A DNA stretch of 64,000 bases from Anaerolineae bacterium. GTDB lineage: Bacteria > Chloroflexota > Anaerolineae > S140-20. Location of the stretch: the NCBI GenBank assembly GCA_027021705.1, contig JALUTT010000171.1:1-64000 (forward strand), written 5' to 3'. Numbering within the stretch: position 1 is the stretch's first letter; each line of letters opens with the position of its first letter. Below, piece by piece: positions 8,501 through 57,252 of this stretch. Below the pieces are notes generated by a model. The model made no database searches. It was not told the DNA's origin and saw nothing but the letters and a program-made list of their open reading frames with translations. The translations under genes were made by a program, and so were the position numbers.

Positions 8501-9586
8501 CTCCCGGCGGCCAGCCAAGGGTACCCCGAGGATCAGGTCGAAGAACTCCAGCAGCATCCCTGGCCGGCCGACAGAGGGGTGATCGGGCGGGTCCTGCGCA
8601 CGGGCGAGCCGGCGCTGGTGCCCGACGTCCAGCAGGACCCCGACTACGTGGCGGTGCTGCCGGAGATCCGGGCGGAGCTGGCGGTGCCCATCCGTCGGGA
8701 GGAGAAGGTGATCGGGGTGATCAACCTGGAGAGCCCGACGGTAGGGGCCTTCAGCCAGGAGGACCTGGAGTTCGTCACCCGCCTGGCCGACCACGCCGCC
8801 ATCGCCATCGAAAACGCCCGCCTCTACGAGCAGGTCAAGCGGGCCAATGAGGCCAAGTCCCAGTTCGTCTCCATCGTCGCCCACGAGATGAAGATCCCGA
8901 TGACCTCCATCAAGGGGTACGCCCGGCTGCTAGAGCTGGGGATGGGGGGCGCCGGCCTGGACGAGACCCAGAAAGGCTTCCTCAAGACGATCATCGCCAA
9001 CGTGGATCGGATGAACAAGCTGGTCACCGACCTGCTGGACATCTCCCGCATCGAGACGGGCCGGCTGCGGCTGGAGATCGAAGCGGTCCCCATCGTCTCC
9101 GTCATCGAGGAAACGCTGAACAGCACCCGCAGCCAGATCGAGGAGAAGGGGTTGAAGCTCCACGTGGAGGTGCCGGACGACCTGCCTCTGGTCCGGGGCG
9201 ACCGAACCCGGCTGGTTCAGGTCCTGACCAACCTAGTCAGCAATGCCTACAAGTACACCAAAGAGGGCTCCATCACCATTCGGGCCGAGCGCTGCCAGGT
9301 CTCTGAGAACGGTCAGGTGAGGGAGTACGTCCGCTGTTCCGTCACGGACACCGGCATCGGGATCGCACCGCAGGACCTGAAGCGCCTCTTCAAGGTGCAG
9401 TTCGTCCGCTTCGAGAACGCGGTGGACATGGCCCCGGGGCACGGGCTGGGGCTCTGGCTGGTCAACCAGTTGGTCCGGCTCCAGGGAGGTGAGATGAGCG
9501 TGGAGAGCGAGCTGGGCAAGGGGAGCACCTTCGCCTTCACCGTCCCGGTGGCGAAGCAGGGGAACGGGCATCAGCCGCCGAGCTAG
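5564..9586 (+). CDS. membrane sensor histidine kinase with PDZ-like, multi-TM and four GAF domains (start uncertain: 5510/5564/5624)
   Basis: H-box AHEMKIP, N-box NLVSNAYKY, DTGIGI, GHGLGL; repeated GAF ends (AAIAIENARLY). Confidence 0.9.
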   Translation: MLAEDEPVESKSPRGEGRGWMAHLPVGAILLLAGLVYLAAPLLAWSWNRQPFLGAFLEPTLVFNNVRVVAWSREGPVPPWQDRLIALDGEPLSGPRSLTPLLRRYQPGDEVTLTLQRPDGTVYEQQVTLRAFRLRDFVHYFFIPYLIGGAYLALGLWVYAARWFEPSGRAFALFSGAAALVLGGLFDLYTTHWLVPLWSVGLGLIGAALIDLALLFPRPIRFIRRRPRLHLLAYLPAPFLIGAALVTASDFTHPWRYGPVWQLCFAYTALGALLLLAMMLYRLRNPDPFIRHQARIILWGLILAFVPLALWLVPAAMGHGALFQPGLHLIPLIFLPLAIAHTIVRYRLLDVDRMVRQGVSYLILTALVAGGYLLTLNLASIVLGEALEADNPIAVAALVVVLALILDPARSRLQRSVDRIFYRDRLDYRQELEAFSHALTTRVNLAGVLEALQERIEAAFHPNGLSIFLWNERAQQYLPVGQEHTVAFTPESPLVRYLLHERRTLCLLPDRDLPAELAAEKERLESLGAMVFVPLGQHGWLALGIRRSGEPYTTDDLAYLEAIAGQAALAIDRVRLITKLEQRVEELEVLRIIGQTIGFKVEIDDLLELVYAQTSRLLDTTNYAIVLYDEEKQRFSYAFYVINGEREYPDDEWPLGEGLSSEIIRTGRPILTDNYVAECERRGVTPRHRDGGQRSWMGVPLHADDRVLGVMRVFSHDPNVVYTQEQLQILSSIADQAALILHRSRLYQEMEKRARQLATLNEVSQTITSTLDLKSVLHLIMEKAVEILDAEAGSLLLVDDETGELVFHVTLGPAAEDLEGVRLPPGTGIVGAVARTGEPIIVQDAHQDERWFAGTDQKTAFVTRAILAVPLQAKGRTIGVIELINKLDGTPFDEEDSQLLTAFASNAAVAIENARLFGQTDQALQARVAELSMMQRIDRELNATLDFARVMELTLDWAIRMTGAQAGTVQVLDEEREVLLPAASQGYPEDQVEELQQHPWPADRGVIGRVLRTGEPALVPDVQQDPDYVAVLPEIRAELAVPIRREEKVIGVINLESPTVGAFSQEDLEFVTRLADHAAIAIENARLYEQVKRANEAKSQFVSIVAHEMKIPMTSIKGYARLLELGMGGAGLDETQKGFLKTIIANVDRMNKLVTDLLDISRIETGRLRLEIEAVPIVSVIEETLNSTRSQIEEKGLKLHVEVPDDLPLVRGDRTRLVQVLTNLVSNAYKYTKEGSITIRAERCQVSENGQVREYVRCSVTDTGIGIAPQDLKRLFKVQFVRFENAVDMAPGHGLGLWLVNQLVRLQGGEMSVESELGKGSTFAFTVPVAKQGNGHQPPS

Positions 9587-10215
9587 AGGTCCAGGTGACG
9601 GACGTAGGCAGCCACCTCGCTGCGCCGCCGCAGCCCCAGCTTGTCCAGGATGTTGCGCACGTGGGTTTTCACCGTGTTCTCAGAGATCATCAGCGTTTCA
9701 GCAATCTGGCGGTTGCTGGCCCCCCGAGCCAGCAACCGCAGCACATCCCGCTCCCGGGGCGTCAGGGGGAGATTGGGAGAGGTGGGAACCTGACCGGTGC
9801 GGAGGGCCTCCAGGACGCGCAGGGTGACCACCGGGGAGAGCATCGCCTCCCCCGCGTGCACCCGTCGGATCGCCTCCAGAAGCTCGTCGGCGTCGGCGTT
9901 CTTGAGGATGTAGCCTCGAGCACCGGCCTGGATGCCCGCGAAGAGGTCCTCATCCTCCTCGGAGACGGTTAACATCAGGACCCGCGCCTCGGGCACGGCG
10001 GCCAGCAGCCGTCGAGTGGCCTCGACGCCGTCCACCCGGGGCATCTGGACATCCATCAGCACCACGTCGGGCCGGAGCTCCCGGACCAGCCGGACGACCT
10101 CCTCACCATCGGCCGCCTCGCCGACCACCTCCAGGTCCGGCTCCGTCTGGAGCAGGCTGACCAGCCCCTGGCGGAAGAGGGTGTGATCATCCACGATCAA
10201 CAGGCGAATGGGCAT
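9583..10215 (-). CDS. NarL/LuxR-family response regulator
   Basis: IVDDH, DVVLMD, GYILK, LTPRE...SENTVKTH HTH. Confidence 0.95.
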   Translation of the reverse strand: MPIRLLIVDDHTLFRQGLVSLLQTEPDLEVVGEAADGEEVVRLVRELRPDVVLMDVQMPRVDGVEATRRLLAAVPEARVLMLTVSEEDEDLFAGIQAGARGYILKNADADELLEAIRRVHAGEAMLSPVVTLRVLEALRTGQVPTSPNLPLTPRERDVLRLLARGASNRQIAETLMISENTVKTHVRNILDKLGLRRRSEVAAYVRHLDL

Positions 10216-10240
10216 CGTCGCACCTCTACGACCGCCAGCA

Positions 10241-10330
10241 GGCGACCGCCGACGGCCGACCGCCGACCGCCGACGACGGACGGCGGACTACGGACTGGGG
10301 ACTGCGGACCGAGGACTGCGGACGGCGACC
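10241..10330. repeat. degenerate heptamer tandem repeats (CCGCCGA / GGACTGC-like)
   Basis: ~7-bp periodicity visible; overlaps the 3' end of the kinase gene. Confidence 0.7.
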
Positions 10331-12099
10331 CGGAGCAGGGTGCCCCGGCCTGGGGTGCTCTGGAGGGTCAGGTCCCCCCCCATCGCCTCCACCCGCTCCT
10401 GCATAATGCGCAGGCCGAAATGGCTCCCTCCGTTCGACGGCTCCGCCGGCAACCCCACCCCATCGTCCTCCACCTCCAGGGTGACCTCATCGGCGTTGCT
10501 CCTCAGCCGCACCCAGACGCGCCGTGCGCGGGCATGGCGGTGTACGTTGACTAACGCCTCCTGGGCCACCCGGAAGAGCTGGACCTCCGCCCCCGGCGAG
10601 AGGAAGGGCTCCCCCTCCACGGCCAGGGAGACCTCCAGCCCGGTGCGGTCTGCGAAGGCCTCCACGTACTGCTGCAGGTGCTCCACCAACCCCTGATCGG
10701 GGTCGGGGGACCAGCGCAGGTCGTGGATGGTCAGCCGGACTTCCCCGTAGAGGTCTTGGACCACCTCCCGCAGCTCCCGCAGGGCCTGGCGGGCGGCCTC
10801 TTCGTGGCCCCGTCCCAACAAGCGCTCGATCTGCTGGACCTTGAAGTTCAGGAAGCCCAGGGATTGGGCCAGGCCGTCGTGGACCTCCCGAGCTAGCCGG
10901 CTGCGTTCCTCCAGGATGGCCTGGCGCTCCAGTTCGCCGTAGAGTTGGCTGTTGCGGATGAGCAGGGCCATCATCCCGGCCGCCGCCTTCAGGAAGGAGA
11001 GCTGGGTGGAGGTGAAAGGCTGCTGTCCCACCAGCGCCAGGACCCCCCGGACCTGCCCCTCGGCCACCAGGGGGACGGCCACCTGGTGGTCGGCTTCACC
11101 GGTCCCGTTTCCCACCAGGACCTCCCCCCCTTCCAGGGCTTGGTGGGCCAAGGTGGTGAGGGAAGGCGACACCTCCCGGCCGGGCCAGCCGGCGATGGGC
11201 AGCAGGGCCGGGAGTTCCTCCCCCTCCAACACTAGGAAGACCGCCCCCGCTTCAGCACGGTGGGCAAGGGCTACCTCCCCCAGCATCACCCCCACAGCAT
11301 CGGCCAAGCCTTCCCGTCGGCGCATCACCTGCTCCATCCGGTCGAGCATCTGGAACTCGCGGGCCCGCAGGCGGGCGTGGTCCATCGCCACGGCCAAAAG
11401 GGCGGCCATAGACTCCACCACGCGGCGGGAAGATGGGGAGATCTCCTCCCGACCGATCAGGTAGACGTTGAGCAGGGCATGGGGGGGATCCCCCGTGGAG
11501 AGGGGGAGACAGATCACCCCCCGAACCTGTAGGGGCGGGTTCTGCGGGTCGGAGAAGCAGAGCAGAGGGCACCCCTCCCGCACCGTGGCTGCCAAGGTGC
11601 GGCACCGCCCGCACCGAAGGTAGGCGCCGGCCGTGGTCAGGTGGGCCTCGATCGCCTCCCGGTGCTCCGGATGGAGATTCCGGGTGCCGGCCAGCACCCA
11701 CGGCCCCTCGGGATGCTCCCGCAGAATGAGGCTGGTGCTCACCGGACCCAGCACCTGGGCGGGCATGGAGAGGGCAATCTCGATGAGCGCGTCCATATCG
11801 GCGGTGATGGCTGCCTGGCGGCTGACCTGGTAGAGGGCCCGCAGGTGGGCCTCCGCCTCATCGCGCTCCCGAACCCGCTCCGCCAGCCAGGTCAAGGTAA
11901 GCCATGCCAGCGCCGGCCCGACGGTGCCGTAGACGGCGATCTGGGAGAGCATATGAAGGGGCCGGGGAAGCCCGCTTAACCAAGCGTGTTCCAGGGCCTG
12001 GTGGGCCAGGACGAGGAGGAAGGCCGCGATGGGCAGGACACGCCGGAGCGCCAAAAGGCGCTGGTAGAGAGGGTGGGGTTGGGGATGGGGTCCTTTCAT
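10288..12099 (-). CDS. GAF-domain HisKA_3 sensor histidine kinase
   Basis: two TM segments, GAF domains, ERSRLAREVHDGLAQ, QEALVNVHRHA, DDGVG, HFGLRIM. Confidence 0.92.
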   Translation of the reverse strand: MKGPHPQPHPLYQRLLALRRVLPIAAFLLVLAHQALEHAWLSGLPRPLHMLSQIAVYGTVGPALAWLTLTWLAERVRERDEAEAHLRALYQVSRQAAITADMDALIEIALSMPAQVLGPVSTSLILREHPEGPWVLAGTRNLHPEHREAIEAHLTTAGAYLRCGRCRTLAATVREGCPLLCFSDPQNPPLQVRGVICLPLSTGDPPHALLNVYLIGREEISPSSRRVVESMAALLAVAMDHARLRAREFQMLDRMEQVMRRREGLADAVGVMLGEVALAHRAEAGAVFLVLEGEELPALLPIAGWPGREVSPSLTTLAHQALEGGEVLVGNGTGEADHQVAVPLVAEGQVRGVLALVGQQPFTSTQLSFLKAAAGMMALLIRNSQLYGELERQAILEERSRLAREVHDGLAQSLGFLNFKVQQIERLLGRGHEEAARQALRELREVVQDLYGEVRLTIHDLRWSPDPDQGLVEHLQQYVEAFADRTGLEVSLAVEGEPFLSPGAEVQLFRVAQEALVNVHRHARARRVWVRLRSNADEVTLEVEDDGVGLPAEPSNGGSHFGLRIMQERVEAMGGDLTLQSTPGRGTLLRVAVRSPRSAVPSP

Positions 12100-12171: not shown

Positions 12172-12223
12172 GAGCAAGGGGCAGGGGGCAAGGGGCAAGG
12201 GGCAAGGGGCAGGGGGCAAGGGG
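12172..12223. repeat. heptamer tandem repeat (GGGGCAA)n
   Basis: about 7 near-perfect units. Confidence 0.85.
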
Positions 12224-12232: not shown

Positions 12233-12697
12233 TCAGGGGCCGGTGGAAGGACCGTAGACGCTGTAACGGGCCTCGATGGCGGCGTAGATCTCGGCGATCG
12301 GCTTGCCCTCGGCGTACATCTGCATCACGTCCCGCGTGATGTCCACGCAGATCCTTCAGTAGGCCGCATGGTACTCGAGGGCGACGCTGCCGTCGGGGTT
12401 GGTCCCGGAGGCGTAGCAGGCGTAGTTGGAGGTATGGCCGCTGTTGACACAGCCGCAGTAGCAGGGGAACTGCCGAAGCAGGTCCGGGTTGGCCAGGGCG
12501 AAGCGGTAGGCCTCCCGTACCTCCGATGGCGCACTCCTCAAATCTGCGGGGAGGTCTGAGAGGGGGGCCATCCGTATCTCGACCCTCCTGCCCTTCTGCC
12601 CCCCGGTTTGGAACAGGAGGAGGGCCAGCAGCAGGATGATCCCTGCCGCGCCGATGAGCCCGACTACGATGATGACAGGACGTTTCCGATTGCGCAT
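12233..12697 (-). CDS. PCYCGC-motif membrane-anchored protein, predicted selenoprotein (UGA 12356-12358 = Sec; 154 aa)
   Basis: PCYCGC motif. Reading through the UGA gives HAAY-U-RIC-VDITRDVMQMYAEGKPIAEIYAAIEARYS...; hairpin CATCACG-CGGGA-CGTGATG follows the UGA. Confidence 0.85.
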
Positions 12698-12719: not shown

Positions 12720-12781
12720 GCGACCGCTGGTGACCGACCGCCGACGGCGGACCGCCGACGGTGGACTGAGGACTGAGGACT
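12720..12781. repeat. degenerate heptamer repeats (CCGCCGA / GGACTGA)
   Basis: visible 7-bp periodicity. Confidence 0.65.
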
Positions 12782-12882: not shown

Positions 12883-12960
12883 TAAGGGGCAAGGGGCAAG
12901 GGGCAGGGGGCAAGGGGCAAGGAGCAAGGACTGAGGACCGAGGACTGAGGACTAAGGACC
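12883..12960. repeat. heptamer tandem repeats (AAGGGGC)n then (AGGACTG)n
   Basis: about 11 consecutive 7-bp units. Confidence 0.85.
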
Positions 12961-15645
12961 AATTGACACCCGCCCGGTGGTGCCATCCACGGTGATCGTC
13001 TGGCCGTCCCGGATGCGCCGGGTCGCCTCGGGGACGTTGACCACGGCCGGCACGCCGTACTCCCGCGCCACGATCGCGCCGTGGGAGAGCTGACCGCCCA
13101 CCTCCAGGACCAGCCCGGCGACCAGGGGGAAGATGGGCGTCCAGCCGGGGTCGGTGGCCCGTGTGACCAGGATCTCCCCCGGGCGCAGCCGGGTCGCCTC
13201 CCGGGGATCGTGGATGATGCGGGCCGTGCCCCGTACCCGACCGCCGCTGGCGGGTAGCCCCTGCAGCACCGAACCCGGCGGCTCATCGGGCGGGGGGAGT
13301 TCGATGGGGCGGCCATCGGGGCCGATCACCTCAGGGGCCTCGACGCCGAACCAGTGCTCGTAGGCCCTGCGTCGCCCGGCCACCAGCGCGGGCAGGTCCA
13401 GGCCGGCCGCTGCCGGATCCCCCGTGGTGATGAGCTTCTCCACATCGGGGACGGTGAGGAAAAAGACGTCGTTGGGCTCCCGCAGCCAGCCCCGCTCGGT
13501 CCACCGCCGGCCGAGGACCCGGTAGATGCGCACGAAGGGGAAGGCGATCTTGGTGATGTAGTGGCGTCCGTTGTCCCGCAGGCGCACGGCCTGTTGGGCC
13601 CTGGCCAGGACACGCCGGAAGATGGCCCGACGGAGGGGACCCAGGTGGGCCTCGACCCAGGCGATCGCCTCCTCCCGCCGCCGGCGCTGCCGCGCTTCGG
13701 CCTCGGCCGGGTTCACCCGATCGCCGGCCCGCAGGTAGCCGGCCACGATCTCGATGACCTGTTCCGGCGCTTCGGCCCAGCGGGGGTGGAGCCACTCCCC
13801 TTCGTTGGGGCAGCGGTGGCCGTGGCGCTGGAGGAAGCGCTCCAGCATCTGGATCACCGGTCGGGCCTGGGGCGTCTCCCGCAGCCGGGCCAGGGCCACC
13901 TCGGGGGGATGGTCCAGCAGGAGGTCGTCCAGGCCCAGGGCGCGGACCTGCTGGGCCATCTCCCAGAGGGCGAGGCCCATCTCGGCGGCGTAGACCCCGG
14001 AGAGGCCGGTGACGAGGTCGTGGGCCAGCTCCTCCCGACCGCACCAGCGGGCCAGCAGCTGCTGCAGCAGGCTGAACGCGGCCATCGCCGAACCGCTCAC
14101 CGCCGTGTGCAGGTTGATCACCTGGGTGGAGCGCTTCACCCAGACCTGGCGGATCTCGGCCCACAGTTCGGCGTCGTCGGCCTGCTCCAGGTCCCGCTCC
14201 AGGAAGTCGGCCACCCAGCGGTCAATCTGGGGGAAGAGGGCTTCCAGTTCCCGTTCAATCCCCAGCCGTCCCGCGATCAGGCTCAGGAAGGCCGGCAGGC
14301 GGCGCAGGAACCGGAGGGGGCGGAAGCGCTCCCGGCGCCGGGGGTGGGAGCGGCGTCGGCTCCCGAGGGCGGCGTCCACGAAGGAGCCAGGGAGCCCCAA
14401 CTCCTGGGTCAGGATGTGGGCGATGGCTCCCTCGTTGTAGTAGATGCGACCGTAGAAGCGCCGGCCCCATTGGATGTCGTCCAGGTAGGGAATGCGCAGA
14501 CCGCGCAGGAAGTAACGGGCCCCCTCGTTCATCGAGAGGGGGATGCCGGACCACAGCAGCGGGCTCACAGGGTAGGGCCAGGCCTCTCCCACGTTGACCC
14601 GCGTCCACAGGTCGAAGGGTTGGGGCGGCTTCTCCTCCAGGACGGGCCAGTCGTCGTCGCCGGGGACCTCGACCTCTCGGCCAGAGGGCTCCGGCGGCAG
14701 CGCCGTGATGGGCCGCGACTGGAGGACGAAGAGGTCGGAGCCGGCCAGGCACCACTCGATGTCCTGGGGAGCGCCGAAGTGGGCCTCGATCTCCCGGCCC
14801 AGCCGGGCCAGCCGAGCCACCTGGGCGTCGTCCAGGACGGGCACGTGTCGCCGCCCTGCCTCGACCTCGACCTCCGCCGTCCCGCCGGCCGCCGGCACCG
14901 ACATCACCCCCTTCTCGGCGACGATGCGCCGTCGGACCCGACCGGTCGCCTTCTCGACGACGAAGGTGTCGGGCGTCACCCGCCCTCCGACGATGGCCTC
15001 GCCCAGCCCCCAGGCCGCGTTGATGACGATCTCGTCCCGGGCCCCCGTCGTCGGGTTGGCGGTGAAGAGGATGCCCGAGACGTCGGCCGGCACCATCTGC
15101 TGCACGACGACGGCCAGGCCGACCGCCGCCGGGACGATGCCCTGGCGGGCCCGGTAGGCGATGGCGCGGGCGGTCCACAAGCTGGCCCAGCACCACCTCA
15201 CCGCCTCCAGCAGGGCCTCCTCCCCCTGCACGTTCAGGTAGGTCTCCTGTTGACCGGCAAAGCTGGCCTCCGGGAGGTCCTCGGCGGTGGCGGAGGAGCG
15301 GACGGCGACGGGGAGGGGGGCGGCGGGGGAGAGGTGGCGGTAGGCCCGGACGATGGCGGCGGCCACGGGCTCGGGGATGCTCCCCCGTTCAAAGAGCCGT
15401 CGGATGGCCCTGGAGGCAGCCTCCAGGGAGGCGGGATCGTCGGGGGAAGCCTGCCGGCCCATCGCCTCCAGGTGCTCCTGCAGGCTGTTGGCCTCGACGA
15501 AGGCGCGGTAAGCAGCCGTGGTGATGACGAAGCCCGGCGGCACGGGAAAGCCGGCCTGGGCCAGGCGGCTCAGGCCCGCTCCCTTGCCGCCGACGATCGC
15601 CAGCGGAGCTTCTGGGGCGTCGAGGGGAAGGGTGAAGGATGGCAT
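12952..15645 (-). CDS. PEP/pyruvate-binding + PEP-utilizing phosphotransferase (rifampicin-phosphotransferase-like architecture)
   Basis: VGGKGAGL, VAVRSSATAED, FAGQ, LQSRPIT; C-terminal TDPGWTP...SHGAIVARE. Start taken at MPSF because the longer ORF overlaps the permease. Confidence 0.88.
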   Translation of the reverse strand: MPSFTLPLDAPEAPLAIVGGKGAGLSRLAQAGFPVPPGFVITTAAYRAFVEANSLQEHLEAMGRQASPDDPASLEAASRAIRRLFERGSIPEPVAAAIVRAYRHLSPAAPLPVAVRSSATAEDLPEASFAGQQETYLNVQGEEALLEAVRWCWASLWTARAIAYRARQGIVPAAVGLAVVVQQMVPADVSGILFTANPTTGARDEIVINAAWGLGEAIVGGRVTPDTFVVEKATGRVRRRIVAEKGVMSVPAAGGTAEVEVEAGRRHVPVLDDAQVARLARLGREIEAHFGAPQDIEWCLAGSDLFVLQSRPITALPPEPSGREVEVPGDDDWPVLEEKPPQPFDLWTRVNVGEAWPYPVSPLLWSGIPLSMNEGARYFLRGLRIPYLDDIQWGRRFYGRIYYNEGAIAHILTQELGLPGSFVDAALGSRRRSHPRRRERFRPLRFLRRLPAFLSLIAGRLGIERELEALFPQIDRWVADFLERDLEQADDAELWAEIRQVWVKRSTQVINLHTAVSGSAMAAFSLLQQLLARWCGREELAHDLVTGLSGVYAAEMGLALWEMAQQVRALGLDDLLLDHPPEVALARLRETPQARPVIQMLERFLQRHGHRCPNEGEWLHPRWAEAPEQVIEIVAGYLRAGDRVNPAEAEARQRRRREEAIAWVEAHLGPLRRAIFRRVLARAQQAVRLRDNGRHYITKIAFPFVRIYRVLGRRWTERGWLREPNDVFFLTVPDVEKLITTGDPAAAGLDLPALVAGRRRAYEHWFGVEAPEVIGPDGRPIELPPPDEPPGSVLQGLPASGGRVRGTARIIHDPREATRLRPGEILVTRATDPGWTPIFPLVAGLVLEVGGQLSHGAIVAREYGVPAVVNVPEATRRIRDGQTITVDGTTGRVSIGP

Positions 15646-15653
15646 ACCTATGG

Positions 15654-16784
15654 CTAGGCCAGGCTGCGGCGCAGGCGGAGCACGCCGGTGCTCAGCAGCA
15701 CCGCCGCCATCAGCAGCAGGGCCAACGTCTGAGGCCACAGGACCTCCAGCCCGACACCTTTGAGGAAGATCCCCAGCGTCACCTCCACGTAGTAGCGCAG
15801 CGGGCTCAGGTAGATCAGCCACTGCAGGAGGCGGGGCATGTTCTGGACGGGCACGATCGTCCCGGACAGGAAGGCCAGCGGGAACAGGATGAAGAAGGCC
15901 AGCAGGAGGGTCTGCTGCATGTTCCGGGCGATGGTCCCCATCAACACGCCGATGCCGCTGCTGCTGAGGAACATGAGCACCGAGATGGCGTAGAAAAGCA
16001 GCAGGCTGCCGCGCAGGGGCACGCCGAAGATCCACATAGACATCGCGACCCCGATGGTCAGGCCCACCAGCTTGAGCAGGACCATCGGCACGATCTTGGC
16101 GGTGATCAGTTCGGCCCCGGTGATGGGGGTGATCATCAACTGCTCGAAGGTGCCGGCTTCCTTCTCCCGGACGATGGCGGCAGCAGGAACCAGCACGCCC
16201 AGCAGCAGCACCGAGATGGCCAGCATGGTCAGCATAATGAAGTGGACATACTTGAGCTGCGGCATGTAGAGGACCTGGATCTGGTTCTTCACCCGGGTCA
16301 GGAGCTGCTGCTTGCCCGGCCCCCCACGGGTGGTCTGGGCCAGCACCACCTGAGCGTTGTACTCCCGCAGCAGGTCGCTGGCGTCGGCCAGGGCCTGCCC
16401 GGCGATGCTGCTGTTGGAGCCGTCCACGACGATCTGCACCTTCGCCGACCGGCCGGCCCTGAGGTCCTGGCTGAAGCCGGCCGGGATGATCAGCGCGAAC
16501 TGAACCTCTCCCCGATCCATCAGCCGGTCAACGGCCGCCGGGTCCTCCAGCCGCTCCACCAGCCGGAAGCTCTCCCGTTGGACGAAGGCTTCCACCAGGG
16601 CTTGGCTCTCGGCCGAGCGATCGCCGTCGTAGACCGCCGTGGGCAGGTTCCGCACCTCTAGGGTCAAGGCCCAGCCGCAGATGGCGATCTCGACGAAGGT
16701 GTAGAGGATGAGCAGCACCAGCGCCTTGTCGCGGAAGAACTGGATGAACTCCTTGCGCATGAGACCCATCAGGCGACGTTTCAT
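15654..16784 (-). CDS. ABC-2 transporter permease (YbhR-like)
   Basis: KEFIQFFRD, VREKEAGTFEQL, FLSG..P, SPLRYY. Confidence 0.9.
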   Translation of the reverse strand: MKRRLMGLMRKEFIQFFRDKALVLLILYTFVEIAICGWALTLEVRNLPTAVYDGDRSAESQALVEAFVQRESFRLVERLEDPAAVDRLMDRGEVQFALIIPAGFSQDLRAGRSAKVQIVVDGSNSSIAGQALADASDLLREYNAQVVLAQTTRGGPGKQQLLTRVKNQIQVLYMPQLKYVHFIMLTMLAISVLLLGVLVPAAAIVREKEAGTFEQLMITPITGAELITAKIVPMVLLKLVGLTIGVAMSMWIFGVPLRGSLLLFYAISVLMFLSSSGIGVLMGTIARNMQQTLLLAFFILFPLAFLSGTIVPVQNMPRLLQWLIYLSPLRYYVEVTLGIFLKGVGLEVLWPQTLALLLMAAVLLSTGVLRLRRSLA

Positions 16785-24257: not shown

Positions 24258-26495
<2,238 letters not shown>

Positions 26496-30491: not shown

Positions 30492-32591
30492 CTACTCAGC
30501 CTCGGCCGCCGCCGGCCTCGGCACCCCGCAGAACTGGTGGTAGTCAATGAGCTCCGTCACCGTGGGGTTCTCGCCGCAGACGGGGCAGTCGGGCGCGGGG
30601 GGCACCGAGACCTCCATGAACTCGCCGTCGAGGGCGTCGTAGAGGAGCAGCCGCCCGATCAGCGGTTCGCCGATCCCCAGGATGATCTTGATGGCCTCCA
30701 TAGCCTGGAGGCTGCCCATGATGCCGGGCAGGACCCCCAGGACGCCGGCCTCGGCGCAACTGGGCACCAGCCCCGGCGGGGGCGGCTCCGGGAAGAGGCA
30801 GCGGTAGCACGGCCCTCCCCGGGCCGGGTCGAAGACGGTCAACTGCCCCTCGAAGCGGAAGATGCTGGCGTCCACCAGCGGCTTCCCCAGCATCACGCAG
30901 GCGTCGTTCACCAGGTAGCGGGTGGGGAAGTTGTCGGAGCCGTTGATCACCACATCGTAGTCGCGCAGCACCTCGAAGGCGTTGGAGGAGTCCAGCAGCA
31001 GGTGATGGCCGACGACCTCGACATCGGGGTTGATGCTGTGCAGGGTCTCGGCTGCCGACTCCACCTTGGGCCGACCGATGTCCTCGGTCTTGTGGAGGAT
31101 CTGGCGCTGCAGGTTGCTCAGGTCCACCACGTCGTGGTCCACGATGCCGATGGTGCCCACGCCCGCCGCCGCCAGGTAGAAGGCGGCCGGCGACCCCAAG
31201 CCACCCGCGCCGATGATCACGGCCTTGGCCTCCAGGAGCTTGATCTGCCCCGCTTCGCCCACCTCGGGCAGGAGGAAGTGGCGGCTGTAGCGCACCCGCT
31301 GGGTGTCGGTGAGGACCTTGGGGATGACGAAGGGGAAGCCGGCCGACTTCCAAGCCTGGAAGCCGCCGACCAGTGACTCCACCCGCGTGTACCCCATCTG
31401 GCGCAGGGCGAGGGCGCCAAGGGCGGAGCGCACCCCACCGGCGCAGTAGACGACGATGGGCGCATCCCGGTCCGACACCAGCTCCTCGATGCGCAGCTCC
31501 AGGAAGCCGCGCGGGATGAAGTGGGCACCGGGGATGTGGCCCTGCTCCCACTCGTCCCGCTCCCGGATGTCCACCAGGTGAACGGGCTCACCGGCGTCCA
31601 GCCGGCGCTTCAGGGTGTGCACGTCCACCTCGGCGATCTGGCTGCGGGCCAGGGCCACCACCTCGTCGCGGGAGCGGCGCTTGAACTGGCCGTTGTCGGC
31701 GACGACCACCGCCCGTGGGGCGGGGGTGGCAGGCAGGCCGCAGGGGCCGACGGCCCCCTCGCCGGCCGGCACCTGCTCCCGAGCTTGGCCTTCGATGGGC
31801 AGGTCGGTCCGGCGGCTCCACTCAGCCCACGACCCCTCGTAGTTGCGCACCCGAGGGTAGCCCAGCCAGCGCAGGACCAGGTAGGTGTGGGAGGAGCGGG
31901 CACCCGTCTCACAGTAGACGACGATCTCCCGGTCCGGCGTGATCCCCCGTTCCTGGAAGAGGCGGTGCAGCTCCTCGGCGGGCCGGAGGGCGGGTGGTGC
32001 GGTGTCGGCCAGGACACTGTCGTAGGGGAGGTGGACCGCGCCGGGCAGCCGGCCGCTCTCGAACTCGGCCTCCGTCCGCACGTCCAGGAGGACGATGTCG
32101 GGATGGCCCAGGTGGGCGGCGATCCAGTTGGCCGTGGCCAGCTTGCTGCTCTCCGGTTCAGCGGCGTAGAGGGCCGGCTCCGGCGTGACCGTCTCGGTGC
32201 TCACCTCCCCGCCGGCCTCTTCCCAGGCTTCCCAGCCCCCCTCGAGGATGTACACCTTGGCGTGGCCGTAGTAGTCCAGGAGCCAGGCGAACTGGGCGGC
32301 CAGGGGGCCGAAGCCCTCGTCGTAGATGACGACCGGGGTCTCGCGGGTCAGCCCCAGGCGGCCCAGCACCTCCTCGGCGGCCGACTGGCCGACCAGCCGT
32401 CCGGGCACCCCGTTGACGGTGGTGAAGAGTTCCTGGAGGTCCAGGGAGACCGCTCCCGGCACGTGGCCGTAGGGGTAACCCAGTTCCAGGTCCGGTAGGG
32501 TGACGCGGAGGTCCACGATCCGTATCTCCGGGTCCGCCAGGCGGTCCTGCAGCCACGCCGCGTCCACCAGGTGGATGGGCCGCTTGGTCAT
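30492..32591 (-). CDS. triple-rhodanese / MoeB-ThiF (E1-like) fusion protein
   Basis: SseA-like tandem rhodanese (YCETGAR, YEGSWAEW), third rhodanese (YCAGGVRS), then RYSRH, GAGGLGS, SNLQRQ, CYRC, PSCAEAG, CPVC. Confidence 0.92.
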   Translation of the reverse strand: MTKRPIHLVDAAWLQDRLADPEIRIVDLRVTLPDLELGYPYGHVPGAVSLDLQELFTTVNGVPGRLVGQSAAEEVLGRLGLTRETPVVIYDEGFGPLAAQFAWLLDYYGHAKVYILEGGWEAWEEAGGEVSTETVTPEPALYAAEPESSKLATANWIAAHLGHPDIVLLDVRTEAEFESGRLPGAVHLPYDSVLADTAPPALRPAEELHRLFQERGITPDREIVVYCETGARSSHTYLVLRWLGYPRVRNYEGSWAEWSRRTDLPIEGQAREQVPAGEGAVGPCGLPATPAPRAVVVADNGQFKRRSRDEVVALARSQIAEVDVHTLKRRLDAGEPVHLVDIRERDEWEQGHIPGAHFIPRGFLELRIEELVSDRDAPIVVYCAGGVRSALGALALRQMGYTRVESLVGGFQAWKSAGFPFVIPKVLTDTQRVRYSRHFLLPEVGEAGQIKLLEAKAVIIGAGGLGSPAAFYLAAAGVGTIGIVDHDVVDLSNLQRQILHKTEDIGRPKVESAAETLHSINPDVEVVGHHLLLDSSNAFEVLRDYDVVINGSDNFPTRYLVNDACVMLGKPLVDASIFRFEGQLTVFDPARGGPCYRCLFPEPPPPGLVPSCAEAGVLGVLPGIMGSLQAMEAIKIILGIGEPLIGRLLLYDALDGEFMEVSVPPAPDCPVCGENPTVTELIDYHQFCGVPRPAAAEAE

Positions 32592-32812
32592 GATGACACC
32601 TCCCGGGTCAGGGTGATGACCCACTCAGGGTTTCCCGTCTGCTCGATCTTCACGCTGAACCCCCGGCGTCGGGCCTGGGTGGGGATGCTCTCCAGGGCCG
32701 GCGCGTGGTCGGTGATCACCTCCAGGACTTCGCCCTCGGGCAGCCGTTTCATCGCTTCAACCGCTTTGAGCATCGGGTAAGGGCAGATCTCGCCTCGCAC
32801 GTCCAATCGCAT
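32588..32812 (-). CDS. TusA/SirA-family sulfur carrier (YeeD/YedF-like)
   Basis: LDVRGEICPYP motif; GAGGAGG RBS. Confidence 0.9.
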   Translation of the reverse strand: MRLDVRGEICPYPMLKAVEAMKRLPEGEVLEVITDHAPALESIPTQARRRGFSVKIEQTGNPEWVITLTREVSS

Positions 32813-32834
32813 CGTCTTCCTCCTCATTGTGGTT

Positions 32835-34328
32835 TCAGGGTAGTCGTCGGATGATCTGAACGCCGATCCAGGCCCCGCCAACCAGCCCCAGCCCGAAGAC
32901 CCAGCCGTTGAGGGCCAGGGAGGGGATGGCGGAGAAGAAGCCGCCGATGTTGCACCCCATGGCCAGGCGAGCGCCGTAGCCCATAAGCAGCCCTCCGCTG
33001 AAGGTCTGCAGGTAGCGGTAGCGGCGGCGGGGGAAGCGGAGTTTGAACTCACCGGCCAAGAGGGCGGCGGTGAAGGCTCCGAAAATGAGCCCCCAGTTCA
33101 GCAGCGTGCCGCCACTCAGCCAGGGGATATGGCTCAGCAGTTCCTTGCCGGCCGGCTTGTCACCGAAGTAGAGCAGGTTCTGGGCCGGATAGCCCAGGGT
33201 GTAGGCGACCCATCCCGCCCAGCGGGAGACGGCGGTGGTGATCCCCCACGGCTTTTTGTACAGGTACTCGAAGATGTTGAGCATTCCTAGAGCCAAGCCG
33301 CCGGCGGCCGCGGGCCAGGCTCGCACGAAGATCTGCTGCCAGCCGACGCGCAGGCGGTCGGCGAAGGTGCGGACCGGCCCGGTCGGCTCCTCCCAGGTGG
33401 AGATGCCACCGGCCCGGCTCTCCCACCAGACGATCAACAGGTAGAAGCCGAAGAGGACGATGAGGGTGAGGACAAGGGCGGGGCCCCATCCCAGCGCCCG
33501 GGGGAACCAGAACTTGGGCTGTCGGGAGATGACGTTGGGCCACCACCACTCCCAGTGTAGGGCCAGGACGAAAGAGCCGGCGATCATCCCCACCAGGGCG
33601 ACCCACTGAGCCACGTAGCCCTCGCCCATCCGGTAGAGGGTGCCCGAGGCGCACCCACCGGCGACGACCATCCCGGTGCCGAAAAGCAGGCCCCCCAGCA
33701 GGGTGTGCCAGCCGGTGGGGTAGACGTTGCCGGCCATCCCCTGGGTCGGGTCGGGCACCGCCTTGTACATAATGAGCGTGAAGCCGACGGTGGCAATGGC
33801 CAGGCCGACGATCACCCCTTTCATCAGGCGGCCATCCTGGAGCAGGAAGAGGTCCCGGAAGGCCGAGGTGAAGCAGAAGCGGCTCCGCTGGACCACGAAG
33901 CCGAAGGCCAGGCCAAAGGTCCAGAAGATGGCCAGGGAGGTGCTAATCCGGGCGTAGAAGAGGAGCACCAGCAGTGCCCCCACGGTGGCCAAGAGGCCGT
34001 AGAGGATGTGCCGCCGGATGCCGGGCAGGATGGGAAGGGTGGACGCTTTGGCCGTCGCCCCACCGGCCACGGCAGGCACCAGGGTGACCTTGTCGTCAGG
34101 TTGGAGCGGGGTGGCCAGGCCCTGCAGAGCGCGGGCGTCCTGGCCGTTGACGAAGAAGCGGACGTAGGGTCGGAGTTGACCGGTCTCGTCCAGCAGGTGG
34201 ACGCGGAGGTCAGGGAACCGCTCGCTCACCTCTGCGACGAGAGCGCCCAGCTCGTCGGCGGTGACCTCCACCTGGGCCTGACCTTCGGTCATCCGACGCA
34301 GGAATGTGGGAAAGTACAAGGTTGCCAT
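32835..34328 (-). CDS. MoaD/CysO ubiquitin-like domain fused to YeeE/YedE-family transporter
   Basis: aa 1-90 beta-grasp ending VPAVAGG with no stop; then QRSRFCF, GGCASG and GCNIG YeeE motifs. Confidence 0.9.
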   Translation of the reverse strand: MATLYFPTFLRRMTEGQAQVEVTADELGALVAEVSERFPDLRVHLLDETGQLRPYVRFFVNGQDARALQGLATPLQPDDKVTLVPAVAGGATAKASTLPILPGIRRHILYGLLATVGALLVLLFYARISTSLAIFWTFGLAFGFVVQRSRFCFTSAFRDLFLLQDGRLMKGVIVGLAIATVGFTLIMYKAVPDPTQGMAGNVYPTGWHTLLGGLLFGTGMVVAGGCASGTLYRMGEGYVAQWVALVGMIAGSFVLALHWEWWWPNVISRQPKFWFPRALGWGPALVLTLIVLFGFYLLIVWWESRAGGISTWEEPTGPVRTFADRLRVGWQQIFVRAWPAAAGGLALGMLNIFEYLYKKPWGITTAVSRWAGWVAYTLGYPAQNLLYFGDKPAGKELLSHIPWLSGGTLLNWGLIFGAFTAALLAGEFKLRFPRRRYRYLQTFSGGLLMGYGARLAMGCNIGGFFSAIPSLALNGWVFGLGLVGGAWIGVQIIRRLP

Positions 34329-34372
34329 AGTCGTTCCCTCCTTGCAAGTCGTTTGGCAGATCTACCAGATGC

Positions 34373-34405
34373 AAAAAAGCCCATCGCCACGAGGACGCGA
34401 TGAGC
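34373..34405 (-). terminator. intrinsic terminator within the 5' leader (attenuator-like)
   Basis: GCTCATCGC-N9-GCGATGGGC followed by TTTTTT, ~45 nt before ATG 34328. Confidence 0.75.
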
Positions 34406-34789
34406 TCGCAAGGAGGCATAGGCAGTCGCCCCACCGATCGCTGTTACGTCGGGTTCTAACAGGCCACCCCGCCCTCTCGGGAGAAGATCGGCCTGCCGGG
34501 GCTGGTATGGGGTTGGCAGGGCTCGCGCACCTGGTGATGTGGGGCCTGCTCACTCCATGCGGCTCATCGCATCAGACCCAGGGACGCGGGCACAGACGGC
34601 AAAGGGCCGACAGCTTCGGGCCGCCGTCTCAACCGCCGACGGCCGGCTGTCGGACACCGTCTGGGCCCGCCGGGTACAGATGCACTTGAGCGCGGTGAAG
34701 GACGTCCCTCGATTGTCCTTCATCCGAGTGAGCCAGGTCCACGTCATTACGGGATCGCTCCAGAGATCGGGAGTGGAATTTGCGCCCGA

Positions 34790-34818
34790 ATTATAGCGCA
34801 GTTTGCCCAATCTGTCCA
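34790..34818 (-). promoter_or_regulatory. sigma-70 promoter for the Ubl-YeeE operon
   Basis: TGGACA-N17-TATAAT. Confidence 0.7.
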
Positions 34819-34824
34819 GCCGAA

Positions 34825-35394
34825 TTAGTCGGTTTGGGAGAGCAAATCCCGGATAACGGCGTCCAATTCGCCCGGCATGAACGGCCCAACCTTGGTCAGA
34901 ACGATGTACCCCTCCCGGTCAATGACGAAGGTCTCGGGGACCCCGGTGATGCGGTAGGCGGCGGAGATGCGCCCTTGTAGGTCGGGGCCGTTGGGATAGG
35001 TGATGTCGAACTCCTCCAAGTAGGCGCGGGCCTTGCTCTCGATGTCCACGTAGTCCACGCCCAGGAGCACGACTCCCTGATCCCGGTACTTGCGCCACAC
35101 CGCTTCCAGCTCGGGAGCCTCCCGGCGGCACTCGACGCACCAGGAGGCCCAGAAGTTGACGACGACGATCCGTCCGCGCAGTTGGGAGAGGGTGACCTCG
35201 CCACTGGTGAACTCGTTTTCGTAGCCGCTGAAGATGGGCAGCGTGAAGTCGGGGGCCAGGCCCGACTCCGGCCGGCCCTGGGCCTGACGGACGAGCCCCC
35301 AGCCCAGGAGTCCCAACAGCGTGAAGATGCTCACCCAGACCAACAGACGACCGATCCGCAGGCGGGCGCTCGGTCGCGTGGCGTTCTCGCTCAT
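34825..35394 (-). CDS. TlpA/CcmG-family membrane-anchored thiol:disulfide oxidoreductase
   Basis: APDFTL, VVNFWASWCVEC, GVPETFVID. Confidence 0.92.
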   Translation of the reverse strand: MSENATRPSARLRIGRLLVWVSIFTLLGLLGWGLVRQAQGRPESGLAPDFTLPIFSGYENEFTSGEVTLSQLRGRIVVVNFWASWCVECRREAPELEAVWRKYRDQGVVLLGVDYVDIESKARAYLEEFDITYPNGPDLQGRISAAYRITGVPETFVIDREGYIVLTKVGPFMPGELDAVIRDLLSQTD

Positions 35395-35397
35395 CGC

Positions 35398-36441
35398 TCA
35401 CCTCCGGGTCGTCTCCAGCCAGAAGGCACCCACGTAGAGGGTCAGCACGCGCCGCAGCACCGGCGGCCAGCGGACGAGGGCCATCACCCCCAGGACCAGG
35501 GGGAGGGGCAGCCGGGGGAGCACCCGCTGGGCCAGGCAGAGCAGGGCGTAGCCAGAACGGCGAGCAGCTACGAGGCGGCGGTAGGCCTCCCGTCCCTCCT
35601 CCAGGGTGATCTCACCCTCCAGGACCTGGCGCAGCAGGCGGCCCAGTTGGGTTCCGAAGAAGAGGGCAGGGCGGATCCCCTCGCCTGTGAGCCCCATGCA
35701 CTGACCGGCGGCATCTCCCACCAGGAAGAGGTCGCCGATCACCGGATCGCGCAGGGCGTAGGGGAAGTAGCCGCCGTGGACGCCGTCCCGCTGCACCCCC
35801 AGGCTGCTCAGGAAGCGGTCCAGACCATTGCCCAGGCGGGTCTCCCCCCGATAGCTGGCGATGCCGATACGGGTGAGGTCGCCGATGGGGAAGGCCCAGG
35901 TGACCCCCATAGGGAGCAGCCGGCGGGGGTCATACCAGAAGTGTAGCCCGTCATCCCGATAGGCCGCCGTCGTCTCGATGCCGAAGTTCAGCCGATCCCG
36001 GCGCACCAACGCGGGGTGGAGCCGTCGGCCCAGCACAGCCCGCCAGCCCGAAGCATCCACGATCAGGTCCCCCTGGAAGGTGCCTTGGGAGGTCCGCACC
36101 CGATCCCCCTCTAGGTCCAGCGTGGCGGCCAGGACGAACTCGGCATCCCCCTGCTCCCGCAGGAGGTGACAGAGGCGGGCGTAGTCGAAGGTGCAGAAGG
36201 GCTTGTCCATCGGGTAGACGAAGGTCCGTCCCGCCGAGTGGATCACCAGACGGTCGTGGACTTGGAGGATGGATTCCTCCAGCCCCAGAGCCTGGAGGGT
36301 GTTGACCAGCGTCCCGCAGGCCGAGGTCTGGCCGGTGCCGATAGGTTTGCGGTCCAGCAGGAGCACCCGTCGGCCTCGGAGCTGGGCGGCGACGGCCAGC
36401 CCGGCGAAGCTGGCCCCGGCGATGATCACCTCGTAGCGCAT
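35398..36441 (-). CDS. FAD-dependent oxidoreductase (geranylgeranyl reductase-like)
   Basis: IIAGASFAG, VDASG, W.FP, LVGDAAG...TGEGI. Confidence 0.8.
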   Translation of the reverse strand: MRYEVIIAGASFAGLAVAAQLRGRRVLLLDRKPIGTGQTSACGTLVNTLQALGLEESILQVHDRLVIHSAGRTFVYPMDKPFCTFDYARLCHLLREQGDAEFVLAATLDLEGDRVRTSQGTFQGDLIVDASGWRAVLGRRLHPALVRRDRLNFGIETTAAYRDDGLHFWYDPRRLLPMGVTWAFPIGDLTRIGIASYRGETRLGNGLDRFLSSLGVQRDGVHGGYFPYALRDPVIGDLFLVGDAAGQCMGLTGEGIRPALFFGTQLGRLLRQVLEGEITLEEGREAYRRLVAARRSGYALLCLAQRVLPRLPLPLVLGVMALVRWPPVLRRVLTLYVGAFWLETTRR

Positions 36442-36478
36442 CGTCTCACAGCCTTGTGGCCCGGTTCGGGCCCTGCCT

Positions 36479-36955
36479 TCATCGCCCTTTGTTCACCAAG
36501 GAGTACCCGGCCGCCTTCCAGGCGATCATCCCGCCGTCCAGGTTCCAGACGTCGGTGTAGCCCAGTTTGACCAGCGTGCGGGCGGCGACGGCGCTCATAC
36601 CCCCGCTACGGCAGTAGACCACAAGCCGGGCTCCCTTGTCGGCAGGCAACTGATCCAGGTTCTGCTCGATCTCGTTGAAAGGGATGAAGAGGTCGGTTCC
36701 TTCGATCTCCCCCTCGTAGGGGACGTGGACGTTGATGAGGGGGAAGTCCTTCTCCTTCAGCATCGCGGCCAGGCCGGCGGCGCTGACGTCGGTGTAACTG
36801 CCACCTCCCTCCACCGGCACTTTCTGGGTCTCCGAAGCCAGGTCAACGGATCCCGATGGGAAGGCGGGGGTGGTCTTCGGGCTACTACAGGCCGCCACGA
36901 CGAAGAGGACGGCGAGCAGGATGAGCAAGAGGGTCAAGCCTTTAGGTTTGGTCAT
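36479..36955 (-). CDS. rhodanese-domain lipoprotein
   Basis: VAAC lipobox, YCRSG, NLDGGMIAW. Confidence 0.88.
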   Translation of the reverse strand: MTKPKGLTLLLILLAVLFVVAACSSPKTTPAFPSGSVDLASETQKVPVEGGGSYTDVSAAGLAAMLKEKDFPLINVHVPYEGEIEGTDLFIPFNEIEQNLDQLPADKGARLVVYCRSGGMSAVAARTLVKLGYTDVWNLDGGMIAWKAAGYSLVNKGR

Positions 36956-50658: not shown

Positions 50659-50720
50659 CCCGTTGACTCGCCGACTCGTTGACTCGCTGACTCGTTGACT
50701 CGCCGACCCATCCACCCATC
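50654..50720. repeat. short tandem repeat (GTTGACTC-like)
   Basis: ~8-bp periodicity. Confidence 0.75.
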
Positions 50721-51784: not shown

Positions 51785-51858
51785 TTTCACACGTCACGCC
51801 TCATCCTTTCACGCCTTACGTTTCACGCCTTACGTTTCACGCCTTATGTTTCACGCCT
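51785..51858. repeat. tandem repeat (TTTCACGCCTTACG)n
   Basis: 14-bp units (2 x 7), about 4-5 copies. Confidence 0.8.
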
Positions 51859-54607: not shown

Positions 54608-54748
54608 GTCGGGTGGTCGGATGGTCGCTTGGTCGCTTGGTCGCTTGGTCCACGGTCCTCAGTCCTCAGTCCTCAGTCCGCTGCTAAGCCGCTAGCCGCT
54701 ATGCCGCTATGCCGCCAGCCGCTACACCGCTTGGCCCCTGCCCCTTGC
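54608..54748. repeat. mosaic short tandem repeats (GGTCGCTT, GTCCTCA, GCCGCTA)
   Basis: same motifs recur at 55815-55943 and 57011-57155. Confidence 0.8.
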
Positions 54749-54824
54749 GCCGGCGGCGGGGTGATGCTACAATCTTCTGCACTGCCGATTCCGGGAGCAA
54801 CACACCGACGAGAGGAGGAAGACC

Positions 54825-55808: not shown

Positions 55809-56019
55809 GAGCGCGGTCCTCAGTCCTCAGTCCGCTGTTTGGTCGGGTGGTCGAGTAGTCCTTGGTCCTCAGTCCATGGTCCGTCGCTAAGCCGCTAGCC
55901 GCTATGCCGCCAGCCGCTACGCCGCTTGGCCCCTGCCCCTTGCGCCGGGGGCGGGGTGATGCTACAATCTTCTGCACTGCCGATTCCGGGAGCAACACAC
56001 CGACGAGAGGAGGAAGACC

Positions 56020-57003: not shown

Positions 57004-57252
57004 GAGCGCGGTCCTCAGTCCGCAGTCCACAGTCCTCAGTCCGCTGTTTGGTCGGGTGGTCACTTGGTCGCTTGGTCAAGTGGTCAGATGGTCACGTGGT
57101 CACTTGGTCCTTGCTCCTTGCCCCTTGCCTCTTGCCGCTAGGCCGCTAGGCCGCTTGATCAGCAGAGGCGGAATATGGCGGTTCTGAAGGAATCACCCTG
57201 GTACAAGCAGATTCTGGAGGAGGGCCTCCAGTTCCCTGGCGGACAACCACCG

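Follow-up and report, generated by a model that had tools for sequence, protein, structure and literature searches.

A predicted CYCXC-family selenoprotein gene, mis-truncated by gene callers, in an Anaerolineae genome

The locus and its product

The window, meaning the whole stretch of DNA that was analysed, comprises 64,000 nucleotides of contig JALUTT010000171.1 (positions 1 to 64,000 of the forward strand) in assembly GCA_027021705.1 of an Anaerolineae bacterium. Its G+C content is 67.6%. The source genome (G000) amounts to 5.19 Mb in 183 contigs, with a completeness of 94.9% and a contamination of 4.5%. The features of the locus are collected in table 1. On the minus strand, an open reading frame starts at the ATG at 12697 and runs for 113 codons to ...EYHAAY, where it meets a TGA at 12358..12356. 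Beyond this codon the frame stays open as RICVDITRDVMQMYAEGKPIAEIYAAIEARYSVYGPSTGP, up to a second TGA at 12235..12233. The coordinates 12233–12697 therefore delimit the entire read-through gene including its stop. A sequence-only reading of the same DNA had remarked that the ORF ends at UGA after HAAY and yet the frame continues, and both observations are borne out by these coordinates. The 60 nt counted from the terminal UGA fold with only -1.1 kcal/mol; they hold a C-rich heptamer repeat without structure.

Table 1. Features of the read-through gene and its flanks. Positions are those of the window.
Feature	Position	Strand	Remarks and basis
Read-through gene, predicted selenoprotein	12233..12697	-	154 codons plus terminal TGA; PCYCGC/CYCXC-domain product (translation; PF13798)
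In-frame TGA, codon 114, predicted to be read as Sec	12356..12358	-	first position of U-R-I-C (homologue alignment)
True stop TGA	12233..12235	-	C-rich heptamer repeat array after it (fold and repeat)
Hydrophobic helix, residues 7-29, membrane anchor	12611..12679	-	AlphaFold2 model; alignment consensus
P-C-Y-C-G-C motif, residues 78-83	12449..12466	-	P78, C79, C81 and C83 invariant
His110 codon	12368..12370	-	four residues ahead of Sec; invariant in Cys-form alignment A4
Cys117 codon	12347..12349	-	partner in UxxC; C117 invariant (alignment)
SECIS core hairpin CAUCACG-CGGGA-CGUGAUG	12323..12341	-	7-bp stem, 5-nt loop (fold, covariation, bSECIS constraints)
HisKA_3/GAF kinase	10291-12099	-	directly downstream in the window (Pfam)
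Response_reg+GerE regulator	9586-10215	-	forms NarL-type two-component pair (9586..12099) with the kinase
PPDK_N/PEP-utilizer gene	12955-16035		other flank of the selenoprotein gene

The 154-residue product matches the Pfam domain PF13798 (PCYCGC) with 81.5 bits against a cut-off of 25. The match covers residues 44-146 and therefore spans the TGA at codon 114. No further Pfam domain is listed for the product at E <= 1, and a search of the genome finds a single PF13798 gene, the one at 12233..12697. Residues C79, C81, C83, H88, C94, H110 and C117 are invariant in the homologue alignment, and C114 is at least 90% conserved. The sequence-only reading had stated that PCYCGC-family proteins carry a later H...CxxC followed by a helical tail; both are conserved in the homologues. 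The N-terminus is less uniform: most homologues have a lipobox with the consensus L-x-A-C, and a lipobox Cys is absent from the window protein in the alignment.

Cysteine and UGA at codon 114

A protein search returns 83 homologues, 29 of which are aligned with the query in the 30 rows of alignment A1. The full-length homologues in this alignment read HALGCSICVDIT or H-A-L-G-C-S-I-C-V-D-I-T, with Cys at the TGA column followed by x-x-C. In 11 of the 30 rows the protein terminates exactly ahead of the Cys column. The clusters P0002 and P0003, of 113 aa and respectively 98% and 85% identical to the window product, are truncated at the same residue.

The column was also read in DNA, in the best 80 of 574 related genome loci. 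These best relatives of the gene are all Chloroflexota, mostly Anaerolineae. The initial pattern for the CYCxC motif matched 79 of the 80 loci, and the codon at the column is TGA in nine of these 79, TGC in 40 and TGT in 30 (70 Cys codons). Locus L044, which escaped the initial pattern, proved to be a Cys form. A search of the genomes of 40 relatives yields five additional distinct Sec forms (L104, L107, L108, L110 and L111). An even sample of the phylum, 301 genomes, has PF13798 in 29 genomes with 33 matches. One in-frame TGA occurs in nine of the 33, the window included, and in all eight of the others it stands at the Cys column.

In total, 23 distinct loci carry TGA (Sec forms: the window and 22 others, all from Chloroflexota) and 70 carry TGC or TGT (Cys forms). 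The 40 residues after the TGA are conserved at the protein level, through to YGP. The pairing of Cys with UGA for which the sequence-only reading had called is thus present, with 70 Cys forms set against 23 TGA forms. Homologues do have Cys at this position, and the codon is not a private nonsense mutation, since the same TGA recurs at the column in 23 distinct loci and whole protein clusters are truncated alike. At the residue four places ahead of the column, Met replaces His in nine of the 23 Sec forms.

The predicted SECIS hairpin

The candidate selenocysteine insertion element lies within the coding sequence. Its core hairpin occupies positions 18-36 counted from the U of the UGA and falls within the D-I-T-R-D-V-M codons, with 21 nt from the UGA to the start of the loop. 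A 7-bp stem with a CGGGA loop 21 nt past the UGA had been drawn from the sequence, and it is confirmed at 12341..12323. The lower stem ATCTG/CAGAT that was drawn with it fares otherwise: it can be traced in the sequence, but it is absent from the minimum free energy (MFE) fold, and in a set of 15 Sec forms only 72% of its cells are paired. This lower stem is rejected as part of the conserved element.

Constraints for bacterial SECIS elements have been published in the legend to Fig. 2 of a review (PMC13188914): a loop of 3-9 nt with a G among its first two positions, an upper stem of 4-16 bp, a spacing of 16-37 nt and an MFE <= -7.5 kcal/mol. The window hairpin lies within every one of these limits (5 nt, G at position 2, 7 bp, 21 nt, -7.7 kcal/mol). 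In isolation the hairpin at -7.7 kcal/mol has z = -3.53, and one of 200 shuffles is as good. The whole 60-73 nt post-UGA region folds no better than shuffles (z +0.67 and z -0.19). Support for the element is therefore comparative rather than thermodynamic, and the folding energy of the whole region was dropped as evidence for a SECIS.

The comparison rests on alignment A5, in which the 23 Sec forms align without gaps. In 23/23 the loop reads CG[G/U]GA and its distance from the UGA is constant, and 96.9% of the stem cells are paired. Compensatory two-sided changes affect five of the seven stem pairs, in 10 cells: C-G becomes A-U, G-C or U-A, A-U becomes G-C, and G-C becomes C-G. The covariation score is matched by 0/500 column shuffles, and a register shift of 1-3 nt destroys the pairing. 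At the same positions, the 70 Cys forms have a mean of 4.9 of the seven pairs; all seven are formed only in L043 and L095, the latter of which carries the identical hairpin. The loop is encoded by the Arg codon (CGN) of I-T-R-D-V-M. Arg is found there in all 23 Sec forms and in five of the 70 Cys forms, most of which have Gln. Part of the hairpin's conservation is protein constraint, because the element lies in these conserved codons. As judged from the aligned sequences, a putative SECIS specific to the family is well supported, its CG[G/U]GA loop being invariant and its stem covarying.

Predicted selenocysteine decoding

The decoding machinery on which the sequence-only reading depends is present in the same genome. 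The tRNA-Sec is detected with Rfam model RF01852 at 72.5 bits, and ARAGORN assigns it the anticodon TCA. The genes selA (566 bits), selB (304 bits, plus its C-terminal part) and selD (376 bits) are found as well, selD with one in-frame TGA of its own. Among other genomes with a Sec form, selA is above the cut-off in 14/14. It is also found in 19 of 20 genomes that show only PF13798 forms without an internal stop (Cys-only), and in 231 of the 301 genomes of the phylum sample, a tally that takes in five genomes flagged as unpublished (G263, G076, G181, G209 and G308), which enter into none of the other results. The gene is thus necessary but not discriminating, and co-occurrence with selA was rejected as a marker of Sec forms.

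Cys/UGA pairing, a conserved covarying hairpin and the decoding machinery together argue that 12697..12233 encodes a 154-residue, N-terminally membrane-anchored extracytoplasmic PCYCGC/CYCXC protein in which UGA codon 114 specifies selenocysteine; the probability of this reading is put at roughly 0.86. SelB carrying Sec-tRNA(Sec) would recognize the hairpin CAUCACG-CGGGA-CGUGAUG within the coding sequence, and the ribosome would insert Sec at UGA 114 instead of terminating. Translation would then end at the next UGA, 12235..12233, behind which there is no hairpin. In the predicted product a long helix would have the U114-x-x-C117 pair at its N-terminal end, and the other conserved residues are His110, C79-x-C81-x-C83, H88 and C94. 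The same three lines of evidence strongly support the original proposal that Sec replaces the first Cys of H-x3-C-x-x-C with the help of a SECIS hairpin.

Other explanations of the UGA have to be weighed against this one. It is highly improbable that the codon is a genuine stop, so that a truncated PCYCGC protein of 113 residues is made and the 40 codons downstream are untranslated or belong to a separate small ORF (GTG 12346). Gene callers do end the gene in this way, as in the 113-aa clusters P0002 and P0003, the gene's real terminator is also UGA, and the regional folding energy is no better than that of shuffles. Such a stop would nevertheless deprive the protein of C117, an invariant residue, and of two helices in a domain that is modelled with confidence (pLDDT 91.5), and it sits badly with a downstream frame conserved at the protein level to YGP, with the recurrence of the same UGA and covarying hairpin in 23 diverged loci and with a genome whose Sec machinery is complete. 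In other systems UGA is known to be read through at a low level, and Sec codons to receive Cys when selenium is scarce. A near-cognate tRNA (Trp or Cys) could in principle read codon 114 outside the SelB/Sec pathway, but nothing specific to this gene suggests it. A hairpin fixed in position, with the conserved G-containing loop of the SelB-type consensus and kept only where the UGA is present, speaks against that route, as does the occurrence of selA in 14/14 other genomes with a Sec form; it is judged less probable still.

Least probable of the three is a pseudogene or an assembly error, in which a Cys codon TGC or TGT has mutated to TGA or been misread in a metagenome-style assembly. A single base change would suffice, and the genome is a draft of 183 contigs with 4.5% contamination. 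An accident of this kind would hardly explain TGA at the identical column in 22 other loci from different genomes, clusters with 85% and 98% identity truncated at the same residue, the lack of other frame disruptions, or a hairpin present in 23/23 Sec forms and in 2/70 Cys forms.

A known predicted family

The family is already on record. NCBIfam model NF041379 is named OS_HP4_CYCXC, 'CYCXC family (seleno)protein'. In a 2022 review the hypothetical protein OS_HP4 is tabulated with the motif UxxC (PMC9312934), and Table 1 of another review gives the CYCXC family protein (OS_HP4) with PF13798 and UxxC, citing Zhang and Gladyshev 2007 (PMC13188914). In these listings both reviews rank the family among predicted, not experimentally verified, selenoproteins (PMC9312934, PMC13188914). 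Neither the 2007 NAR paper (PMC1976440) nor the 2008 GOS paper (PMC2398784) was found to use the name OS_HP4 in its main text; the family may first have been described in the supplement of one or the other. It also goes unnamed in the main text of the BSepDB paper (PMC13326102).

The only CxxC pattern of the PF13798 domain in the alignment is that at 114-117, so the UxxC of the listings corresponds to the column of codon 114. The window protein has the features under which OS_HP4 is listed, namely the PF13798 domain and a single Sec in UxxC (U114-R-I-C117). Its relation to the curated model is looser. Against NF041379 it scores 67.1 bits, with residues 58-145 aligned and the Sec column included; NCBI's cut-off is 90 bits, and membership by that measure was rejected. 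The cut-off is reached by 0/23 Chloroflexota Sec forms, which score 45.7-81.4 bits. These scores below 90 bits place the proteins in a diverged branch outside the curated equivalog.

The protein is thus a member of a known predicted selenoprotein family that has been mis-truncated by gene callers; it is not a new kind of selenoprotein. Novelty, which the sequence-only reading had raised as a point for checking, is not supported, the family being represented in NF041379 and in the predicted lists of the two reviews (PMC9312934, PMC13188914). The list of protein families known to use selenocysteine is unchanged. The practical yield is a correction of annotation: the gene has been called as a 113-residue fragment, and relatives of 85-98% identity are truncated alike in public protein sets. 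Scores below the NF041379 cut-off may be the reason why gene callers truncate the Chloroflexota Sec forms, and with 23/23 of these missing the cut-off, such genes may stay truncated.

With the CYCXC/OS_HP4 proteins of NF041379 the window protein shares the Pfam domain and the UxxC with one Sec. It differs from most CYCXC/PCYCGC homologues in having a plain membrane anchor where they have a lipobox. The Cys-form PCYCGC (lipo)proteins of Anaerolineae and Bacillales have the same domain and the same set of Cys and His residues, at 40-53% identity, and like the window protein they are extracytoplasmic and membrane-tethered. They differ from it in carrying TGC or TGT for TGA, in lacking the hairpin (mean 4.9/7 pairs) and in mostly having Gln for the loop Arg.

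Predicted structure

An AlphaFold2 model built from 65 sequences (pLDDT 91.5, pTM 0.77) shows a membrane helix at residues 7-29 followed by a compact, mostly helical domain with two short strands. In this model U114-x-x-C117 stands at the start of helix 115-129. Comparison with known structures yields no assignment. A sequence profile search of the PDB gives nothing significant, the best values being E 0.036 for a ferredoxin and E 0.097 for CcmH, in the helical tail. Foldseek against the PDB has no match at E <= 0.001, and a wide structure search with VIA has no clear match, its best Z of 4.7 being to a designed protein.

CcmH recurs as a weak match, at Foldseek ranks 2 and 10 (E 1.4) and at VIA rank 2 (Z 4.4, 74 aligned residues). 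This apocytochrome c thiol reductase (PDB 2hl7, 2kw0) resembles the window protein in its small helical periplasmic domain, its membrane anchor and its CxxC pair. Unlike the window protein it has no CYCxC motif, and its CxxC is placed otherwise relative to the shared helices; with all similarities below significance, CcmH is a lead and does not amount to membership. No thioredoxin-fold chain is among the matches listed by Foldseek and VIA, and the model is mainly helical. The earlier view was of a non-thioredoxin, exported protein. The N-terminal anchor appears in the model, and a thioredoxin fold, though absent from the matches listed, may still be present.

Gene neighbourhoods

Neighbourhoods were compared for ORFs within 2.6 kb at 14 non-window Sec loci (all those then known) and 15 Cys loci, 142 ORFs being searched against Pfam. 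A recurring set of genes lies downstream: a small cupredoxin (COX2/Cupredoxin_1), a polyferredoxin membrane protein of 450-500 aa with Fer4_5, and/or a protein that joins COX2 to cytochrome c. The set follows the gene in 15/15 Cys loci, which were hand-picked from 70 and are not a random sample (Fer4_5 in 13), and in 8/14 Sec loci (Fer4_5 in seven). Less frequent neighbours include an HMA-MerA-like reductase in L029, an HMA protein in L111, DsbD_TM proteins in L068, L086 and L107, a TlpA-like or AhpC/TSA redoxin in L104, and DUF1573 proteins in L048 and L096. HisKA_3 kinases flank the homologue in L024, L027, L048, L061 and L073.

The window itself has a different arrangement. No cupredoxin or Fer4_5 gene is found near the gene, which lies between the PPDK_N/PEP-utilizer gene and the HisKA_3 kinase, and synteny with copper genes was rejected for this locus. 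The NarL-type two-component pair beside it may be functionally linked to the selenoprotein gene. Elsewhere in the genome, on a different contig, the homologue of the Fer4_5 protein is encoded immediately behind a gene for a SCO1/SenC copper chaperone. Across the relatives, the neighbourhoods appear to point to copper or thiol handling outside the cytoplasm. Cupredoxin, polyferredoxin and CuA-like/cytochrome c genes accompany the family consistently enough to supply a testable functional idea, and as such a modest lead.

Possible function

A tentative proposal, given somewhat less than even odds, has the (H/M)-x3-U-x2-C site capture a soft metal, with Cu(I) the likeliest, and pass it on, or form a selenylsulfide, or do both. 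Such a site would help to mature the cupredoxins, CuA-like proteins and cytochrome c proteins whose genes lie beside most homologues. The sequence-only reading had called the protein probably metal-binding. This suggestion is favoured by the gene neighbourhoods of the relatives and by the exchange of His for Met four residues ahead of Sec, an alternation characteristic of soft-metal ligands. Functional analogues are the MxCxxC heavy-metal-binding modules and the Sco1/SenC copper chaperones. The arrangement of soft-metal ligands, (H/M)-x3-(U/C)-x2-C, is alike, as is the company of copper proteins. These analogues differ in fold and family, sequence similarity to the window protein is not detected, and metal binding by PCYCGC proteins is only putative.

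A purely redox role is the other candidate, and a lesser though substantial chance is given to it. UxxC would then be a thiol/selenol-disulfide oxidoreductase site like that of CcmH or TlpA, without metal binding, and outside the membrane it would act as reductant for Cys pairs in apo-cytochrome c or apo-CuA proteins. Sec takes the N-terminal position of UxxC, at a helix N-terminus in the AlphaFold2 model, and DsbD_TM neighbours (L068, L086, L107) and the AhpC/TSA redoxin in L104 also speak for this role. Among the weak matches CcmH alone recurs (PDB profile E 0.097, Foldseek ranks 2 and 10, VIA Z 4.4); every one of these CcmH similarities, however, is below significance. The His/Met alternation, six conserved Cys and two His look more like metal ligands, and the neighbours are mostly copper proteins. 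Metal handling is put higher than a purely redox role. The two are compatible: Sco proteins are reported to fill both metal and thiol roles.

According to the review that tabulates the family, most uncharacterized UxxC/CxxU selenoproteins are thought to be redox proteins (PMC13188914). Entries in the table of the 2022 review include Sec-containing metal-handling proteins with UxxC or UxxU motifs (PMC9312934). For a Bacillales member, the relevant passage of a lipoproteome paper mentions only that cysteines are conserved and that an Fe(3+)-binding protein is a neighbour (PMC13068155). A literature search directed at the function of PF13798/PCYCGC found no paper.

Sec and Cys forms in the family

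A broader hypothesis, which is unlikely to hold in full, would make the PCYCGC/CYCXC proteins unrecognized extracytoplasmic assembly factors for copper centres (cupredoxin, CuA) with a (His/Met)-x3-(Sec/Cys)-x2-Cys site. Sec would be the older state in Chloroflexota, and the abundant Cys forms of Anaerolineae would have arisen as Cys took the place of Sec, with SECIS hairpins persisting in a decaying or 'fossil' state, as in L095. At the loop codon, the change from Arg to Gln would indicate that the RNA no longer constrained the sequence.

A quick maximum-likelihood tree of 93 distinct domains implies at least three changes between Sec and Cys. The direction of change is not established, because the root is a midpoint root only. 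One clade gathers 68 of the 70 Cys forms, with an SH-aLRT value of 80, which is not strong. The Cys forms L095 and L044 nest among Sec forms, and L095 retains the complete hairpin; their placement and this hairpin tentatively fit replacement of Sec by Cys.

Sec and Cys forms of the PCYCGC family

Homologues of the selenoprotein carry either TGA (Sec forms) or a cysteine codon (Cys forms) at the Sec column. The Cys form at locus L095 is nested among the Sec forms in the tree and retains the full 19-nt SECIS hairpin, identical to theirs. This locus may represent a recent Sec-to-Cys conversion carrying a 'fossil' SECIS. The residue four positions before Sec is invariant apart from the replacement of His by Met in 9 of the 23 Sec forms (L110, L111, L114–L119 and L121), giving x-M-x3-U-x2-C; L120 retains His. 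The His/Met alternation suggests that this residue is a metal ligand.

Selenium- and metal-related genes

The selenophosphate synthetase of the genome is probably itself a selenoprotein, because the selD match (C41:5488-6420, L018) contains one in-frame TGA; the enzyme is among the selenoprotein families in a review listing (PMC13188914). The window also carries a sulfur/selenium-transfer-like gene cluster (30495-36955, minus strand). YeeE/YedE is among the selenoprotein families in the table of a 2022 review (PMC9312934).

A P-type ATPase gene, in whose product no HMA domain was detected, lies approximately 12 kb from the selenoprotein gene. For the Fer4_5 membrane protein, the polyferredoxin-motif neighbour of many family members, a single homologue was detected in the genome, on another contig at L122 (C152:21751-26124). 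It shares 32% identity with the neighbour at L023, has no Pfam match of its own at E <= 0.001 and is directly preceded by a SCO1/SenC copper chaperone gene.

Features of the window
Feature	Position	Strand
P-type ATPase (E1-E2_ATPase and HAD hydrolase domains)	24261-26495	-
ThiF domain and three rhodanese domains	30495-32624	-
ThiS-Sulf_transp fusion, YeeE/YedE-type	32838-34328	-
AhpC/TSA redoxin	34828-35394	-
Rhodanese	36482-36955	-
Short tandem arrays	10243-10327, 12174-12223, 12736-12766, 12884-12959, 50653-50707, 51794-51858, 54614-54724, 55885-55926, 57007-57113	

Repeats and a possible gene duplication

Many intergenic spaces of the window are filled by short tandem arrays of 7-8-nt units, among them GCAAGGG (x7), AAGGGGC (x6.6), AGGACTG, CGACCGC, CGGACTG and TGGTCACT; the selenoprotein gene has such arrays on either side. 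The arrays resemble the cyanobacterial heptamer repeats known as STRR. Two neighbouring ORFs (54629-55648 and 56020-57000), neither with a Pfam match, have the appearance of a gene that was recently duplicated in tandem: they have 12/24/36-nt internal tandem repeats in common, and the repeat scores at 55499-55611 and 56694-56806 are identical.
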